Source of the DNA: Acidimicrobiia bacterium
GTDB lineage: Bacteria; Actinomycetota; Acidimicrobiia; Spongiisociales; ZC4RG35
DNA length: 64,000 nucleotides
NCBI GenBank assembly: GCA_965220995.1
Contig: OZ244856.1
Span: 450,928 to 514,927 of the forward strand
Direction of reading: 5' to 3'
Below the pieces are notes generated by a model, which worked only from the letters and a program-made list of their open reading frames with translations, made no database searches and was not told where the DNA came from. A program made the position numbers and the translations under genes. The first letter of the stretch is position 1. Each line of letters begins with the position of its first letter. This document shows, piece after piece, positions 58,005 through 63,524 of the stretch.

Positions 58005-58203
58005 TGGCGCAACCCCCTTTTCCCTTCTCGACTGCCCGTCCCAGATTAGCCGCCCATGTGGCCCTCCCCTGACAAGATACCGACAAGAAGCCTCATCTCG
58101 GCAGGCTGATATGTCCTGCTATATCTTATGCTCAAGTCTCGGGCGGCGGAGTCATAGTGCAGCGTCGGCGTAGTATGGCGGAGACATCCCACCCGGAGCC
58201 AGG

Positions 58204-59772
58204 ATTCGTCGACTAGTCATCATCATTGCCCTGTTCCTGTGGGCGTGCGGCAACGACGCTGCGCCACCCGCCTCCGTTGACGCTCCTTCCGTCCCGTCCA
58301 GCCCGACATCGCAGGCCCGGTCCTCCCCTTCCGAAGCGCCCGTCACTCCGCCATCTTCGGCGCCCACCACCTCTTCGTCTGCGGCGCCCTCCACCCAAGC
58401 CGTCCAGGACACCACCACCACCGTTCTCGCCCCCGAGCCAACTGCTCCTCCCCGTCCAGCCAATTTGGTGTCGAGTGAAGGCCAGGCCTTCCCACCATCA
58501 CCCGACTTTCCCGATGGCCCGATCTCAGAGCATTTACGGGCCGATCTCGACGCCTTTTTCGATCTGCTGGAAGCAGAGCGGAGAATCGGCCAGGACGAAC
58601 TGAAGGCGATGGCCTCTCATGGCGACATCCGCTCCGCCTGGATTCTCACCGACATACTTCGCTTCTCCAACAGCGTGGAGGTGTATGAACTGTTGGGAAG
58701 CCGTTTGCAGGACCTCTTGGGTGACGACGTTGTCATCGGTGGAGGTCCGGACCTGTGGAGGAAGGCGGTGGATTTGCTGATTGCCTGGGACTTGCCGGCA
58801 TTTCCTGAATACGCCCACTACAAGGGCCGGATATTCACCCTGGTGGAACCGGGCTGGGAGCCCTTCTTCGACGATCCCGACGCAACCATCGACTGGCGCT
58901 GGGTCAGTTGGGGCGGGGTTTTCATCGACGATCGCCCATTGGGGGTTACCACCGGTTGCCCCCGAGGATGCATTCCCGCCCTCGACGACCCTCCGGTGAC
59001 CCCCGCAGCCGAAGGCGACTGGTACCCCGAGGACGCGGTGGTGTTCGGAGTAACCATAAACGGGGAATCCCGCGCTTACCCAAAGAACCAGATGGAAGTC
59101 CATGAAATGGTCAACGACACGCTGGGCGGCAGGAGAATCGGAATGCCCTATTGCACCCTGTGCGGCTCCGCCCAGGTCTACTTCACCGACCAGGTCCCCG
59201 AAGGGGTCGAGACTCCGGTTCTCCGCACGTCGGGTCTTCTGAGCAGGTCGAACAAGGTCATGTACGATCTCAACACCCGGTCGGTGTTGGACACCTTCAC
59301 CGGAGAAGCGGTGTCCGGCCCCCTGCGGGAAGCGGGGGTTCGCCTTGCCCAGGCCACCGTGGTGTCCTCCACGTGGGGCGCCTGGAAGGAGGCCCACCCG
59401 GACACCACCATCATCGCGGAGGACGGCGGCCTCGGCCGACGCTACCCCCTCGATCCCCTGGGAGGTCGGGACGACGACGGTCCGATCTTCCCGGTGGGCG
59501 ACGTCGACCCTCGCTTGGAGGTGCAGGAATTGGTGGTGGGGGTGGAGTTGGAGGATGGGACGACCATCGCCTTTCCCCGCCAGGCCGCCCTGTCGGTGAT
59601 CAACTCGGGCGGAGAGGTGACCGCCGCAGGGGTGCGGGTGGTGGCAGACGGCGACGGACTGCGGGTTGTTTCGGCGACGGACGGGTCGGAAATCTCCTCT
59701 CACCAGGCCTTTTGGTTCGCCTGGAGCCAGTTTTGGCCCGACACGCTGCTTTGGGAACCCCCCTCTCGGTAA
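58204..59772 (+). CDS. DUF3179-family protein; probable lipoprotein with a Ser/Pro/Thr-rich linker.
   Basis: DUF3179 hallmark MPYCTLCGSAQVYF. The track ORF starts at 58465. The frame is open from 58174 and encodes a signal-peptide/lipobox-like RIRRLVIIIALFLWAC followed by a P/S/T-rich linker. No canonical start; possibly ATT 58204 (GGAG 6 nt upstream). Confidence 0.55.
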   Translation: MRRLVIIIALFLWACGNDAAPPASVDAPSVPSSPTSQARSSPSEAPVTPPSSAPTTSSSAAPSTQAVQDTTTTVLAPEPTAPPRPANLVSSEGQAFPPSPDFPDGPISEHLRADLDAFFDLLEAERRIGQDELKAMASHGDIRSAWILTDILRFSNSVEVYELLGSRLQDLLGDDVVIGGGPDLWRKAVDLLIAWDLPAFPEYAHYKGRIFTLVEPGWEPFFDDPDATIDWRWVSWGGVFIDDRPLGVTTGCPRGCIPALDDPPVTPAAEGDWYPEDAVVFGVTINGESRAYPKNQMEVHEMVNDTLGGRRIGMPYCTLCGSAQVYFTDQVPEGVETPVLRTSGLLSRSNKVMYDLNTRSVLDTFTGEAVSGPLREAGVRLAQATVVSSTWGAWKEAHPDTTIIAEDGGLGRRYPLDPLGGRDDDGPIFPVGDVDPRLEVQELVVGVELEDGTTIAFPRQAALSVINSGGEVTAAGVRVVADGDGLRVVSATDGSEISSHQAFWFAWSQFWPDTLLWEPPSR

Positions 59773-60445: not shown

Positions 60446-61432
60446 TCAGGTGGCGAGTCCGATCGCTTCCCACACGGTGGCCATGGACACCTCGGCCCGA
60501 CGCCGGGCCTCGGCCGCTCCCTCCGCCATCAGCCGTGACACTTCGGCGTCGTCCATGCCCTCGTACCGTTCTCTGACCGGCGTCAAATATTCAACCAGCG
60601 CCTCGGCCACGGCTATCTTGAACCGGCCGTAGCCACCATCCCGGTGTTCGGCGGCCAAGTCTTCCGCGGAACGACCGGTGGCCACCGCGAACAGCTCCAA
60701 CAGGTTGGAGATCCCCGGCTTGGATTCCCACTCGTAGTCAACGGTTCGCCCCGAATCGGTAACCGCCGCCCGGATCTTGCGCCGAATCTGATCCGCGGTG
60801 TCGGTGAGCAGCAGACGGGATCTAACGTCGGGATCGCTCTTGGACATTTTGGCGGTGGGATCCTGCAGGGACATCACCCGGGCGCCGATCTGAGGAGTGA
60901 TCCGTTCGGGCACGGGAAACACCGGGCCGAAACGATGGTTGAACCGCTCCACCAGATCGCGGGTCAACTCCAGATGCTGACGCTGATCCTCTCCCACCGG
61001 CACGGCATGCACCTTGTGGATCAGAATGTCGGCCGCCATCAGCACCGGATAGGACAAGAGCCCCAGATTCTGACCACTCCGATCGGCCTTCTCCTTGTAC
61101 TGGGTCATCCGGTTGAGCTGCCCGATGCCGGTGATGGTTGACAGGACCCAGGCCAGTTCGGCATGCTGAGGAACCTGTGACTGGAAGTAGAACACCGATC
61201 GCTTCGGGTCTATGCCCGACGCCATCACCAGCTTGGCGGTCTCCAAGCGGGCGACCTGAAAGGCGGCCGGATCGTAGGGAATGGTCATGGCATGCAGATC
61301 GACCACGCAGTAATAGGTCTCGTATTCCTCCTGCATCTGTGCCCAGTTGCGCAACGCTCCCACCAGATTGCCCAGATGCAACTCGCCGGTGGGCTGGATT
61401 CCCGAAAAGACCTTTTTCTTGCCTGTAGCCAT
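60446..61432 (-). CDS. trpS: Tryptophan--tRNA ligase.
   Basis: HIGH-class motif TGELHLGN and KMSKS. Start at the Met 6 codons into the track ORF. Confidence 0.9.
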   Translation of the reverse strand: MATGKKKVFSGIQPTGELHLGNLVGALRNWAQMQEEYETYYCVVDLHAMTIPYDPAAFQVARLETAKLVMASGIDPKRSVFYFQSQVPQHAELAWVLSTITGIGQLNRMTQYKEKADRSGQNLGLLSYPVLMAADILIHKVHAVPVGEDQRQHLELTRDLVERFNHRFGPVFPVPERITPQIGARVMSLQDPTAKMSKSDPDVRSRLLLTDTADQIRRKIRAAVTDSGRTVDYEWESKPGISNLLELFAVATGRSAEDLAAEHRDGGYGRFKIAVAEALVEYLTPVRERYEGMDDAEVSRLMAEGAAEARRRAEVSMATVWEAIGLAT

Positions 61433-61456
61433 TTGGACAGCGCCCATCCTAACCAG

Positions 61457-61485
61457 TTGACGAACATATTTGGTTGTGCCATAAT
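61457..61485 (+). promoter_or_regulatory. Sigma-70/SigA-like promoter for the cimA leader.
   Basis: TTGACG, a 17-nt spacer, then CATAAT. The predicted TSS is about 7 nt before the leader-peptide ATG, so the leader is near-leaderless. Confidence 0.5.
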
Positions 61486-61498
61486 GGGCGGTGTGACA

Positions 61499-61537
61499 AT
61501 GATCGACTTACGCCGCTCCATCATTATCGACCCATAG
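61499..61537 (+). CDS. Attenuator leader peptide MIDLRRSIIIDP (three consecutive Ile codons).
   Basis: 12-codon ORF between the promoter and the terminator hairpin. ATC-ATT-ATC run. A longer in-frame form starts at ATG 61484. Confidence 0.5.
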   Translation: MIDLRRSIIIDP

Positions 61538-61563
61538 GCGTCGGCCGCCCAAGCCTGCGCCAG

Positions 61564-61590
61564 AGCCCTCTGCCCGGCAGAGGGCTTTTT
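61564..61590 (+). terminator. Intrinsic terminator/attenuator hairpin upstream of cimA.
   Basis: GCCCTCTGCC(c)GGCAGAGGGC followed by TTTTT, ending 28 nt before the cimA ATG. Confidence 0.6.
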
Positions 61591-61617
61591 CATTGCCCCG
61601 ACCAATACCCACCAGAC

Positions 61618-63237
61618 ATGAGCAAAACCCTTCACTCCGATCTTGAGATTTATGACACGACCCTGCGTGACGGCGCCCAGCAGGAAGGCATTTCTCTCAC
61701 GGTTTCCGACAAACTGAGGATTGCCTCGCTGCTCGACTCGCTGGGCGTCCACTACATCGAAGGCGGATGGCCGGGCGCCCTTCCCAAGGACAACGAGTTC
61801 TTCGCCCGCGCCAAGACGGAACTTTCCCTCTCCAACAGCCGACTGACCGCTTTCGGGTCGACCAGGCGGCCGTCCCGGAGGGTTGACACCGATCCCCAGT
61901 TGCGCTACCTGCTGCAAGCCCAGACGGAGGTGATCTGCATCGTCGGAAAATCCTGGGATTATCACGTTCGAGAAGCACTGCGCTGTGACCTCGACGAGGG
62001 GATCCGCATGGCGGGGGAGTCGGTGGAGTTTCTGAAATCGCACAACCGGCGGGTGTTCTTCGACGCGGAGCACTTCTTTGACGGGTACCGGGCCAATCCC
62101 GAATACGCCCGGGCGGTGATCACCGCCGCCTGGGAAGCGGGCGCCGAGCGACTGGTGCTGTGTGACACCAACGGGGGCGCCCTGCCGTCGGAGATCAACC
62201 GCGTCATCGCCGAACTCGGTGAGACCCTGCCCGCCGACGCGCTGGGTGTGCATTTCCACAACGACGCCGGGTGCGCGGTCGCTTCCTCGTTGGCTGCGGT
62301 GGCGCAGGGGGTAAGACAGGTTCAGGGATGCATCAACGGCTACGGCGAGCGGACCGGTAACGCCGACCTCTCCACGGTCATACCCGATCTGGTTTTGAAA
62401 ATGGGCGTCCCGGTGGTGGACACCCGGCGCCTTTCCCGGATTTCTTCGGTTTCCCATCACATAGCCGAAGTGGTCAACATCACGCTCGACCCTCACCGGC
62501 CTTATGTGGGGGCGTCGGCCTTCACCCATAAAGCGGGTCTCCACACCTCCGCTTTGGCCCGCCGACCCGACGCCTACGAGCACGCCCGCCCGGAGTTGGT
62601 GGGCAACAGCACCCGAATGGTCATATCCGAACAAGCCGGAAGAGCCGCCGTGATCCGAAGAGCCGCCGCCCTCGGCCTGGACGTGGACCAGGACGCCGCC
62701 GCCTCGGTGCTGGAACAGGTGAAGGAAATGGAGCATCGCGGCTACCAGTTCGAAGCGGCGGACGGATCGTTCGAGTTACTGGTGAGACGGGTCCTCGGAC
62801 GGCGCCGGGACCTGTTTTCGGCCGCAGGCTTTTCGGTCTCCATTCACCGCCAAAAAGGTCAGGACGAGATTCGGTCTCAGGCCGAGGTGGAGGTGAAGGT
62901 GGGAGATGAGATTCACCGAACCACCGGAGCGGGAGTGGGGCCGGTCCACGCCCTGGACCAGGCCCTCAGGCAGGCTCTTGTGTCGGCCTTTCCGCAACTT
63001 GAGCGCCTGCGGCTGGTGGACTACCGGGTCCGGGTCCTTGATTCCTCCGACGGCACCAGCGCCACGGTGCGGGTCTTGATCGAGACCACCGACGGCGAAG
63101 AATCCTGGGGAACGGTGGGAGTTCACCCCAACATCATCGAAGCCTCCTGGGAAGCCCTGTCCGACGGCCTGACGGTGGGCCTGCTCCGGCTGGGAGATTC
63201 CAAAGAAGCCTCCGGTCCTCAGACGGACAGCGGGTAG
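61618..63237 (+). CDS. cimA: (R)-citramalate synthase (LeuA-family, CimA type).
   Basis: N-terminus IYDTTLRDGAQQEGISLTVSDKLRIASLLDSLGVHYIEGGWPGALPKDNEFF is typical of the citramalate-synthase/LeuA-related clade. 539 aa with a C-terminal regulatory domain. The Ile-codon attenuator upstream fits a role in isoleucine biosynthesis. Confidence 0.65.
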   Translation: MSKTLHSDLEIYDTTLRDGAQQEGISLTVSDKLRIASLLDSLGVHYIEGGWPGALPKDNEFFARAKTELSLSNSRLTAFGSTRRPSRRVDTDPQLRYLLQAQTEVICIVGKSWDYHVREALRCDLDEGIRMAGESVEFLKSHNRRVFFDAEHFFDGYRANPEYARAVITAAWEAGAERLVLCDTNGGALPSEINRVIAELGETLPADALGVHFHNDAGCAVASSLAAVAQGVRQVQGCINGYGERTGNADLSTVIPDLVLKMGVPVVDTRRLSRISSVSHHIAEVVNITLDPHRPYVGASAFTHKAGLHTSALARRPDAYEHARPELVGNSTRMVISEQAGRAAVIRRAAALGLDVDQDAAASVLEQVKEMEHRGYQFEAADGSFELLVRRVLGRRRDLFSAAGFSVSIHRQKGQDEIRSQAEVEVKVGDEIHRTTGAGVGPVHALDQALRQALVSAFPQLERLRLVDYRVRVLDSSDGTSATVRVLIETTDGEESWGTVGVHPNIIEASWEALSDGLTVGLLRLGDSKEASGPQTDSG

Positions 63238-63255: not shown

Positions 63256-63524
63256 AATCTGTGAAATCAGACACTATCTCGCGAAAACACCCCTAAAATT
63301 CCTGTCCCGAGGGCCCTTCCCCCGCCACCACCTTTCCTGGGTCGGGACGCGAAATCCGTCATATATTGAACGGGATTTCGCTTTCCCGAGAGTATGGTCC
63401 CTGCGGCCGGTCTGGACGACGTCGGAACAGACCGGGAGGTGCTTGACACCTATCACTATGTGACACCACGGAGACAAAGTCAACCCATCGGCCACCCTGT
63501 TTTTCGCGACCCTCCCCAATAACC
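63256..63524. repeat. Copy B of the conserved ~268-nt structured element; candidate ncRNA or MITE-like repeat.
   Basis: Same orientation and ends as copy A. Perfect hairpin GCGAAATCCG...CGGGATTTCGC. Lies between the convergent 3' ends of cimA and an ABC ATPase gene. Confidence 0.6.

Follow-up and report, generated by a model that had tools for sequence, protein, structure and literature searches.

A Probable Isoleucine-Responsive Leader-Peptide Attenuator Ahead of the Citramalate Synthase Gene cimA in Acidimicrobiia

Introduction

Leader-peptide attenuation of genes for branched-chain amino acids (BCAA) is classical. In the pyrBI and pyrE attenuators of E. coli it is the ribosome itself that covers the terminator, and the signal is the speed of the polymerase (UTP). 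Among actinobacteria, candidate ilvB leaders with terminators but with missing components were noted in 2005 by Seliverstov et al. (PMC1262725). Experimental studies have been made of the Corynebacterium ilvB-II motif (PMC10272879) and of the upstream open reading frame (uORF) of Mycobacterium tuberculosis ilvB1, for which the model has a ribosome on the stop codon cover an antiterminator located just downstream (PMC13236596). Mycobacterial leaderless polycysteine small open reading frames (sORFs), the 'Cys ribulon', regulate translation (bioRxiv 10.1101/834739). The present study concerns the interval between the divergent trpS gene and the 539-codon citramalate synthase gene cimA in a 64-kb stretch of DNA from an Acidimicrobiia bacterium (contig OZ244856.1, positions 450,928 to 514,927), which is called the window below.

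We will argue that this interval probably encodes an isoleucine-responsive leader-peptide (ribosome-mediated) transcription attenuator that controls cimA. The original prediction for the locus had already read it as an Ile-codon attenuator, and this reading is now supported by a conserved Ile run, promoter, start and stop, by covarying hairpins, and by a codon content that matches the regulated gene.

Leader Architecture and Conservation

The features of the locus, in window coordinates, are the following.

61457..61462, + strand: −35 hexamer TTGACG, from a promoter scan; TTGAC-like with exactly 17-nt spacing in 27/27 orthologous leaders
61477..61485, + strand: extended −10 element TGC-CATAAT with its hexamer at 61480-61485, from the same scan; CATACT or CATAAT at the same position in orthologues
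61493..61537, + strand: predicted leader sORF, starting at GTG 61493 (likely leaderless) or ATG 61499 and ending at TAG 61535-61537; peptide (M)TMIDLRRSIIIDP
61520..61528, + strand: candidate regulatory Ile codons ATC ATT ATC; III(I)(I) is kept in the 27 cimA-proximal leaders
61537..61561, + strand: hairpin A, 8 bp, −12 kcal/mol by folding; its first base is the G of the UAG stop
61562..61590, + strand: T, a predicted intrinsic terminator, from folding and compensatory changes; stem of 12 bp at 61562-61588, loop at 61574-61576, U-run at 61586-61590
61618..63237, + strand: cimA, predicted citramalate synthase of 539 residues, by the TIGR00977 equivalog
60446..61432, − strand: trpS, tryptophan--tRNA ligase, divergent, by TIGR00233 at 333.5 bits

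The promoter that had been proposed, TTGACG-17-CATAAT, is indeed found at 61457-61485; it matches 10 of the 12 consensus positions and has a TG extension. The start codon follows the −10 element by 7 nt if it is GTG 61493 and by 13 nt if it is ATG 61499, which gives an sORF of 14 or 12 codons, respectively. Read from ATG 61499 it encodes MIDLRRSIIIDP, and in either case it ends IIIDP-TAG, such that the three Ile codons are situated two codons ahead of the UAG stop. Hairpin A is followed without any spacer (0 nt) by T, which is GC-rich, has a TTTTT tail, and ends 27 nt before the cimA ATG at 61618. The divergent orientation of trpS means that A and T cannot serve to terminate an upstream gene.

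It should be pointed out that none of these signals stands out strongly in the window itself. The leader folds with −39.2 kcal/mol (z = −2.56), the motif ATHATHATH occurs 5 times in the 64 kb against 2.1 expected, and 2 promoter-like sites were found in the 3.6 kb scanned against 0.9 expected. A simple terminator scanner did not detect T in the window, probably because A/G.U pairs at the base of the stem use up part of the T run. The signals of the window alone are thus mildly above chance, and their significance derives from conservation at orthologous loci.

For the comparison, species-representative genomes were scanned, giving 80 loci, nearly all from metagenome-assembled genomes (MAGs) of Acidimicrobiia, with CimA identities of 48-83%. 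A covariance model was built from 18 leaders (a seed subset with a hand-written structure), and the pattern III-x(0-2)-stop was searched as a regular expression in the window and all loci, on both strands (1.24 Mb in total). The covariance model gives 60 hits to the leader unit, which come from 59 of the 81 Acidimicrobiia sources and all lie on the same strand as cimA. Of the 41 hits of the regular expression, 35 are this leader.

At the 27 loci with enough upstream DNA, an ORF of 8-14 codons is located 80-150 nt 5' of cimA and ends in III, IIII or IIIII, followed by 0-2 codons and the stop. Three more loci have the same architecture with IGI or LIL in place of III. As the original prediction had suggested that orthologous leaders be compared for Ile runs, we note that the run is kept while the rest of the peptide diverges: outside of it, the peptides of different lineages are unrelated, as illustrated by MRPYDLGIIIG, MSANATFIIID, MNGPATSIIIII and, from an AT-rich Actinomarina, MKKIIIII. 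Nothing in the predicted sORF is conserved except for the Ile run and the start and stop codons.

All 27 of these leaders have a TTGAC-like −35 element, a spacer of exactly 17 nt, and a CATACT- or CATAAT-like −10 element, and the first in-frame start codon follows the latter by 6-12 nt (mode 9). This leaves no space for a Shine-Dalgarno sequence, and the sORF is therefore predicted to be leaderless or nearly so. Since the two closest orthologues start 7-8 nt past the −10 element (L001 with ATG, L002 with GTG), GTG 61493 is the likelier start in the window and is likely to be a truly leaderless one. The near-leaderless sORF of 12 codons with three Ile codons that was originally described is thus present at ATG 61499, but its start is better placed two codons upstream, for a length of 14 codons.

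Start, frame and stop of the sORF are kept in 59 leaders, which argues for a translated ORF, and the variation of the Ile run is confined to third codon positions. The codon choice within the run is also biased. In the cimA ORFs of these genomes, 6.5% of the Ile codons are ATT, compared to 28% (23/82) in the leaders, an enrichment of about 4-fold (p = 1e-7), and nearly every run contains exactly one ATT.

These data bear on the simplest alternative, namely that the sORF is a chance ORF in front of a constitutive partial terminator, with no sensing of any amino acid. The weakness of the individual signals in the window would be in line with it. However, the unit is kept in 59 genomes at 50-83% CimA identity with frame-preserving variation, its codon content matches the gene (see below), and the biases toward UAG and ATT are strong. 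We consider the probability of a chance ORF to be negligible; judged by the comparative sequence data, it is effectively refuted.

Hairpins A and T

We now consider the two hairpins. The GC hairpin with a U5 tail that had been reported ahead of cimA is confirmed as T, 27 nt before the ATG, and it covaries. That description of the leader structure was, on the other hand, incomplete, as it omitted the second conserved hairpin, A. Both are considerably more stable than dinucleotide shuffles, with median ΔG values of −20.4 kcal/mol (z −5.4) for A and −17.5 kcal/mol (z −4.3) for T, and A is the stabler of the two in 25 of 34 leaders.

In the alignment of 60 leaders fitted to the covariance model, 98% of the cells are paired and 15 of the 17 pairs are double-changed (7/7 in A and 8/10 in T). 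In the corresponding controls, 0/500 shuffles reach the observed value, and slid registers are paired to 33-51%. An independent run with MAFFT and RNAalifold yields compensatory changes in 7 of 10 pairs of T; it detects only T because MAFFT misaligned hairpin A.

The geometry is quite tight. Hairpin A is found in all leaders and, in the 59 for which distances were compiled, begins at a distance of 0-4 nt (mode 2), counted from the first stop-codon base. The last Ile, Val or Leu codon lies 0-2 codons ahead of the stop, exactly 1 codon in 44 of the 59, and T follows A after 0-7 nt (median 3). The distance from T to the downstream gene varies between 2 and 172 nt. Most of the 59 leaders have a U-rich tail after T, as expected for the predicted terminator. 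The stop is UAG in 53 of the 59, whereas among long ORFs of these loci the share of UAG is 23% (Fisher p = 2e-24). This bias fits a long dwell of the ribosome on the stop, an RF1-specific and perhaps slow termination, or a need for the G in opening A.

No Rfam 15 family, including T-box, the Leu, Thr, His and Trp leaders and the ilvB motifs, matches positions 61300-61800 better than E = 2.7, and among 17 loci searched with Rfam, four leaders included, only tRNAs reach the gathering score.

That A is conserved as a structure beside the terminator with no competing pairing would also be compatible with A being the site of a trans-acting regulator, either a protein or RNA polymerase as with put-like RNAs, in which case the sORF would be secondary or incidental. 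Protein binding has been proposed for the actinobacterial LEU element by Seliverstov et al. (PMC1262725). What is conserved in A across the family is, however, the pairing and the position relative to the stop, and not the sequence. Protein binding would furthermore not explain why Ile/Val codons are kept in runs, why start and stop are fixed, or why the codons match the gene. A trans-acting regulator is for these reasons very improbable.

Another alternative is translational attenuation, in which stalling on the leaderless sORF would remodel the RNA and expose the cimA ribosome-binding site. The predicted leaderless sORF with its regulatory codons near the stop does resemble the mycobacterial polycysteine class (bioRxiv 10.1101/834739), and three leaders (L024, L026 and L028) have a weak third hairpin over a GGAG just before cimA. 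Against this, T is in most of the 59 leaders a GC-rich stem with a U-rich tail, as is typical of intrinsic terminators. The start of cimA, 27 nt past T in the window and at variable distance in the orthologues, pairs with neither A nor T, and a conserved sequestering helix is not seen in the leader folds. We regard this option as improbable, although somewhat less so than a trans-acting regulator.

Codon Content and Downstream Genes

The strongest available evidence for amino-acid-sensing leader peptides is a codon content that matches the regulated gene, and the family offers such a comparison. Where a cimA-proximal leader is missing, cimA stands at the end of an operon, either leuB-ilvE-cimA or leuB-cimA. 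In many Acidimicrobiales with such an operon-end cimA (L031-L070; e.g. L046:947-4596 and L077:1857-4581), the same type of leader, also picked up by the covariance model, is found ahead of the operon, with peptides that end in mixtures of Ile and Val such as VIIIV, VAIIP, IIVIS and IVVIR. The mean numbers of codons among the last five are as follows.

Leaders directly before cimA (n=31): Ile 3.03, Val 0.13, Leu 0.06
Leaders before the leuB(-ilvE)-cimA operon (n=27): Ile 2.33, Val 1.15, Leu 0.04

In genome L040, two leaders of the same architecture are present (L040:2913-2991 and L040:6511-6589). The peptide of its cimA leader, MTEDTLLTTIIIR, ends TTIIIR, whereas that of its ilvB (acetolactate synthase) leader, MTNTPLTTVLLIT, ends TVLLIT and thus reads VLLI. 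The same architecture precedes ilvB in L165, with the reading FGIIIV; the peptide MVVQSFLFGIIIV before ilvB is from a metagenomic contig. A pattern scan of metagenomes gave 14 further cimA and 4 further leuB examples.

The same leader design is in this way seemingly retuned by its codons for three targets, Ile for cimA, Ile and Val for leuB-ilvE-cimA, and Val, Leu and Ile for ilvB, which together would constitute a small ribosome-read regulon.

One class of metagenome hits was discarded. The 31 'MIIIS' mini-ORFs (in L081, L094, L096 and 28 others) correspond to the N-terminus of rpsF in reverse complement; the start of this gene for ribosomal protein S6 (MRRYEMMII...), read on the opposite strand, also fits the pattern ATCATYATYNNNTAG..GCGCA, which produces this spurious class.

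Search for an Antiterminator

In the canonical four-segment attenuator, a stalled ribosome frees an upstream segment that pairs with the 5' arm of the terminator, giving an antiterminator that is mutually exclusive with it. The sORF, the regulatory codons and the terminator that such a scheme would use are all present here, and the original prediction had recommended folding the leader for alternative terminator/antiterminator pairings. We looked for a helix sharing nucleotides with T by both folding and duplex tests, and none was found.

In the minimum-free-energy fold of every leader, A and T stand side by side. Folds were also made of the transcript before the 3' arm of T is available, either free or with a ribosome masked at the stop, and the 5' T arm of the 27 cimA-proximal leaders is then unpaired or engaged in weak local helices only. 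For the operon leaders, the alternatives available to this arm amount to −1.5 to −8 kcal/mol, compared to −17 to −20 kcal/mol for T. When each T arm was paired with the whole upstream RNA by RNAduplex, the best duplexes were no stronger than those of shuffled sequences (mean z +0.67 and +0.25). Applied to E. coli trpL as a positive control, the test returns the known antiterminator at −15.6 kcal/mol.

The closest approach to a four-segment arrangement is a weak helix between the 3' arm of A and the 5' arm of T, which amounts to −5 to −8 kcal/mol in L046, L077, L047 and L072 when the 5' arm of A is masked. However, these helices are 10-15 kcal/mol weaker than T, and they would form with the ribosome on the stop, i.e. 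in the Ile-replete state, which is the wrong logic. Moreover, a ribosome stalled at the Ile codons touches just the base of A. A four-segment mechanism is accordingly unlikely, even if it is the most probable of the alternatives considered here. The terminator-overlapping antiterminator that defines the textbook attenuator is absent, and the element is probably an Ile-sensing attenuator that is not of the four-segment type.

Some other pairings and one other mechanism were considered and rejected. Pairing of the loop or 3' arm of A with the 3' arm of T, in the style of ilvB-II, or of the two 5' arms with each other, is possible in a few lineages (e.g. L012 and L013) and is not general. The AAUGAU:AUCAUU pairing of the start-codon region with the Ile codons, present in some folds, is a trivial case of self-complementarity. 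Since hairpin A is at a frameshift-like spacing, a programmed frameshift on the Ile codons was considered, and it was rejected because AUCAUYAUY is not slippery.

The leader would thus provide a natural case of a leader peptide and a terminator without an antiterminator, a puzzle that has been noted for actinobacterial leaders since 2005.

Proposed Mechanism

The tight geometry, in which 0-2 codons separate the Ile run from the stop, A opens at the preferred UAG and T follows 0-7 nt further on, suggests a concrete mechanism. Transcription would start from a sigma-70-type promoter, with the 5' end of the transcript at or near the sORF start codon, and since there is no room for another promoter, cimA would be expressed solely by read-through of T. 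A single ribosome on the sORF would then report the supply of charged tRNA-Ile.

Counted from the first base in the P site, the mRNA entrance of the ribosome is located at about +11 to +13. By this geometry, a ribosome at the last Ile codon would spare A, while one with UAG in its A site would cover the 5' arm of A, so that the state of A would report the passage of the Ile run. When isoleucine is plentiful, the ribosome would reach the UAG, unzip A and occupy its 5' arm; with A opened, T would fold behind the RNA polymerase, and transcription would stop. When isoleucine is scarce, the ribosome would halt at the Ile codons, and the base of A would be right at its mRNA entrance, which is about +12 to +15 relative to the P site; A would then remain folded and T blocked, and the polymerase would continue into cimA. 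The polarity is chosen such that the physiology makes sense, i.e. intact A allows read-through and opened A allows termination. We consider this assignment, intact A as ON and ribosome at the stop as OFF, to have about an even chance of being correct.

As A and T do not overlap, we propose that the exclusion is steric. The folded A would be wedged between the stalled ribosome and the base of T, 0-7 nt away, such that the lower stem of T is kept from the RNA exit channel; the unzipping of A would provide about 15-20 nt of slack and thereby relieve the block on T. A may in addition serve as a pause hairpin that synchronises polymerase and ribosome. How intact A defeats T with no common nucleotides is the least certain step and a conjecture, and the steric explanation for it is a tentative one that we think more likely to be wrong than right. 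Equally speculative is the broader interpretation that A is a ribosome-gated antiterminator without terminator overlap, which would be a new expression platform, with sensing through the distance between ribosome and terminator and not through base-pair competition. The gating mechanism as a whole is something that we infer.

Several points weigh against this interpretation and should be stated together. In thermodynamic folding, A and T coexist in every ribosome state, and RNA folding alone would therefore predict termination whether or not a ribosome is stalled. We know of no demonstrated case in which an adjacent, non-overlapping hairpin blocks an intrinsic terminator. In the window, A is the weakest of the family, with −12 kcal/mol compared to −20 kcal/mol for T. 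The covariation was counted in an alignment that had been fitted to the model, which favours the structure. All of the genomes compared are MAGs, and the positions of transcription start sites come from promoter spacing only. Finally, actinobacterial leaders do not always behave classically: for the S. coelicolor ilvB leader, mutation of the candidate regulatory codons was reportedly without effect, according to a citation in PMC1262725.

With a length of about 130 nt, the element is small enough to be dissected in vitro and to serve as an Ile-responsive part in hosts of high GC content.

Identity of the Synthase and Observations at Neighbouring Sites

The naming of the gene as cimA rather than leuA, as in the original prediction, holds at the sequence level. 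The synthase scores 674.2 bits against the TIGR00977 citramalate synthase equivalog (cutoff 450) and falls under the cutoff of every LeuA (2-isopropylmalate synthase) and homocitrate synthase model; for TIGR00973 (leuA_bact) the score is 233 with a cutoff of 598.7. The Pfam domains are HMGL-like, HCS_D2 and LeuA_dimer. No solved structure was found for any close relative. The name is justified by sequence, and the product is a predicted citramalate synthase of the Geobacter-type CimA (TIGR00977). The match between leader codons and gene supports an Ile-specific role of cimA. It would constitute independent, regulatory evidence that a LeuA-like gene makes isoleucine, and it backs the citramalate route for Acidimicrobiia, a class that is widespread and for the most part uncultured. 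Indirect support for a preference of the enzyme for pyruvate over 2-ketoisovalerate comes from the leader with Ile codons only and from the leuB-ilvE-cimA operons.

Some observations can be added on the gene and its surroundings. In the window, cimA has no recognisable Shine-Dalgarno sequence in 61591-61617 (cccaccagacATG); several orthologues have GGAG 7-9 nt before the start. About 110 nt past the cimA stop there is a possible terminator for the gene, an inverted repeat at 63349-63382 (+ strand; cgaaatccgtc...gacgggatttcg followed by CTTTCCC); the fold of the whole region around it is not significant (z = −1.35). On the minus strand, convergent with cimA, a promoter-like TTGACT-17-CATAGT (63483..63455) is followed 5 nt on by the GTG of a 60-residue ORF (63449..63267), which may be another leaderless transcript.

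The window contains a second ATCATCATT, at 58219, which is not a leader, as it sits within a lipoprotein signal peptide. This lipoprotein-type signal peptide (RIRRLVIIIALFLWAC|G; 58171-58465, + strand) is in frame with a 435-residue ORF at 58465..59772. After the preceding stop, its frame has no ATG, GTG or TTG, and the ATG at 58175 is in another frame (MAETSHPEPGFVD*), which suggests either a non-canonical ATT/ATC start or a 1-nt assembly indel.

Comparison with Known Systems

With the enterobacterial leaders (trpL, leuL, ilvL/ivbL, thrL, hisL and pheL) the cimA leader has in common a run of end-product codons, a terminator before the gene, and the position of the ribosome as the presumed sensor. 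The enterobacterial sORFs are led by a Shine-Dalgarno sequence, the antiterminator overlaps the terminator, and the regulatory codons lie within segment 1. In the cimA leader, by contrast, the sORF is predicted to be leaderless or nearly so, the Ile run is located just 5' of a stop-codon hairpin, and there is no alternative pairing of the terminator.

The likeness to pyrBI and pyrE is that the ribosome would act sterically on the terminator and not through an antiterminator helix. Unlike in these attenuators, the stop of the cimA leader is about 25 nt 5' of T, with a collapsible hairpin in between.

The 'Cys ribulon' leaders resemble the present one in having a leaderless first cistron (here a predicted one), a run of codons for one amino acid near the stop, and a design that is reused at several loci of a pathway. 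They unmask a downstream ribosome-binding site and have no terminators, whereas the cimA leader has a conserved terminator hairpin and U tract.

The actinobacterial ilvB leaders come closest. They share the phylum, the BCAA codons near the end of a short uORF, and the Rho-independent terminator that follows, and in all 59 leaders the geometry also places just past the stop a hairpin that a terminating ribosome could mask. The model for M. tuberculosis ilvB1 has a hairpin just past the stop that is masked by a ribosome on the stop codon and can form when the ribosome is stalled, which is the same logic as proposed for A. The two differ in the target and its codons (ilvB with mixed Ile, Leu and Val compared to cimA with Ile only). 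They also differ in the RNA: the published ilvB models involve overlapping, mutually exclusive helices, and the uORF of ilvB-II runs through P1, whereas the A and T helices of the cimA leader have no bases in common and its sORF reaches just to the base of A.

A literature search for a leader peptide, attenuator or T-box of cimA or citramalate synthase gave nothing relevant. What is new is the target, cimA and leuB-ilvE-cimA in Acidimicrobiia, and the architecture, which combines a predicted leaderless sORF, a hairpin at the stop codon, the lack of terminator overlap and the preference for UAG. In its broad kind, the cimA leader belongs with the actinobacterial ilvB leaders.

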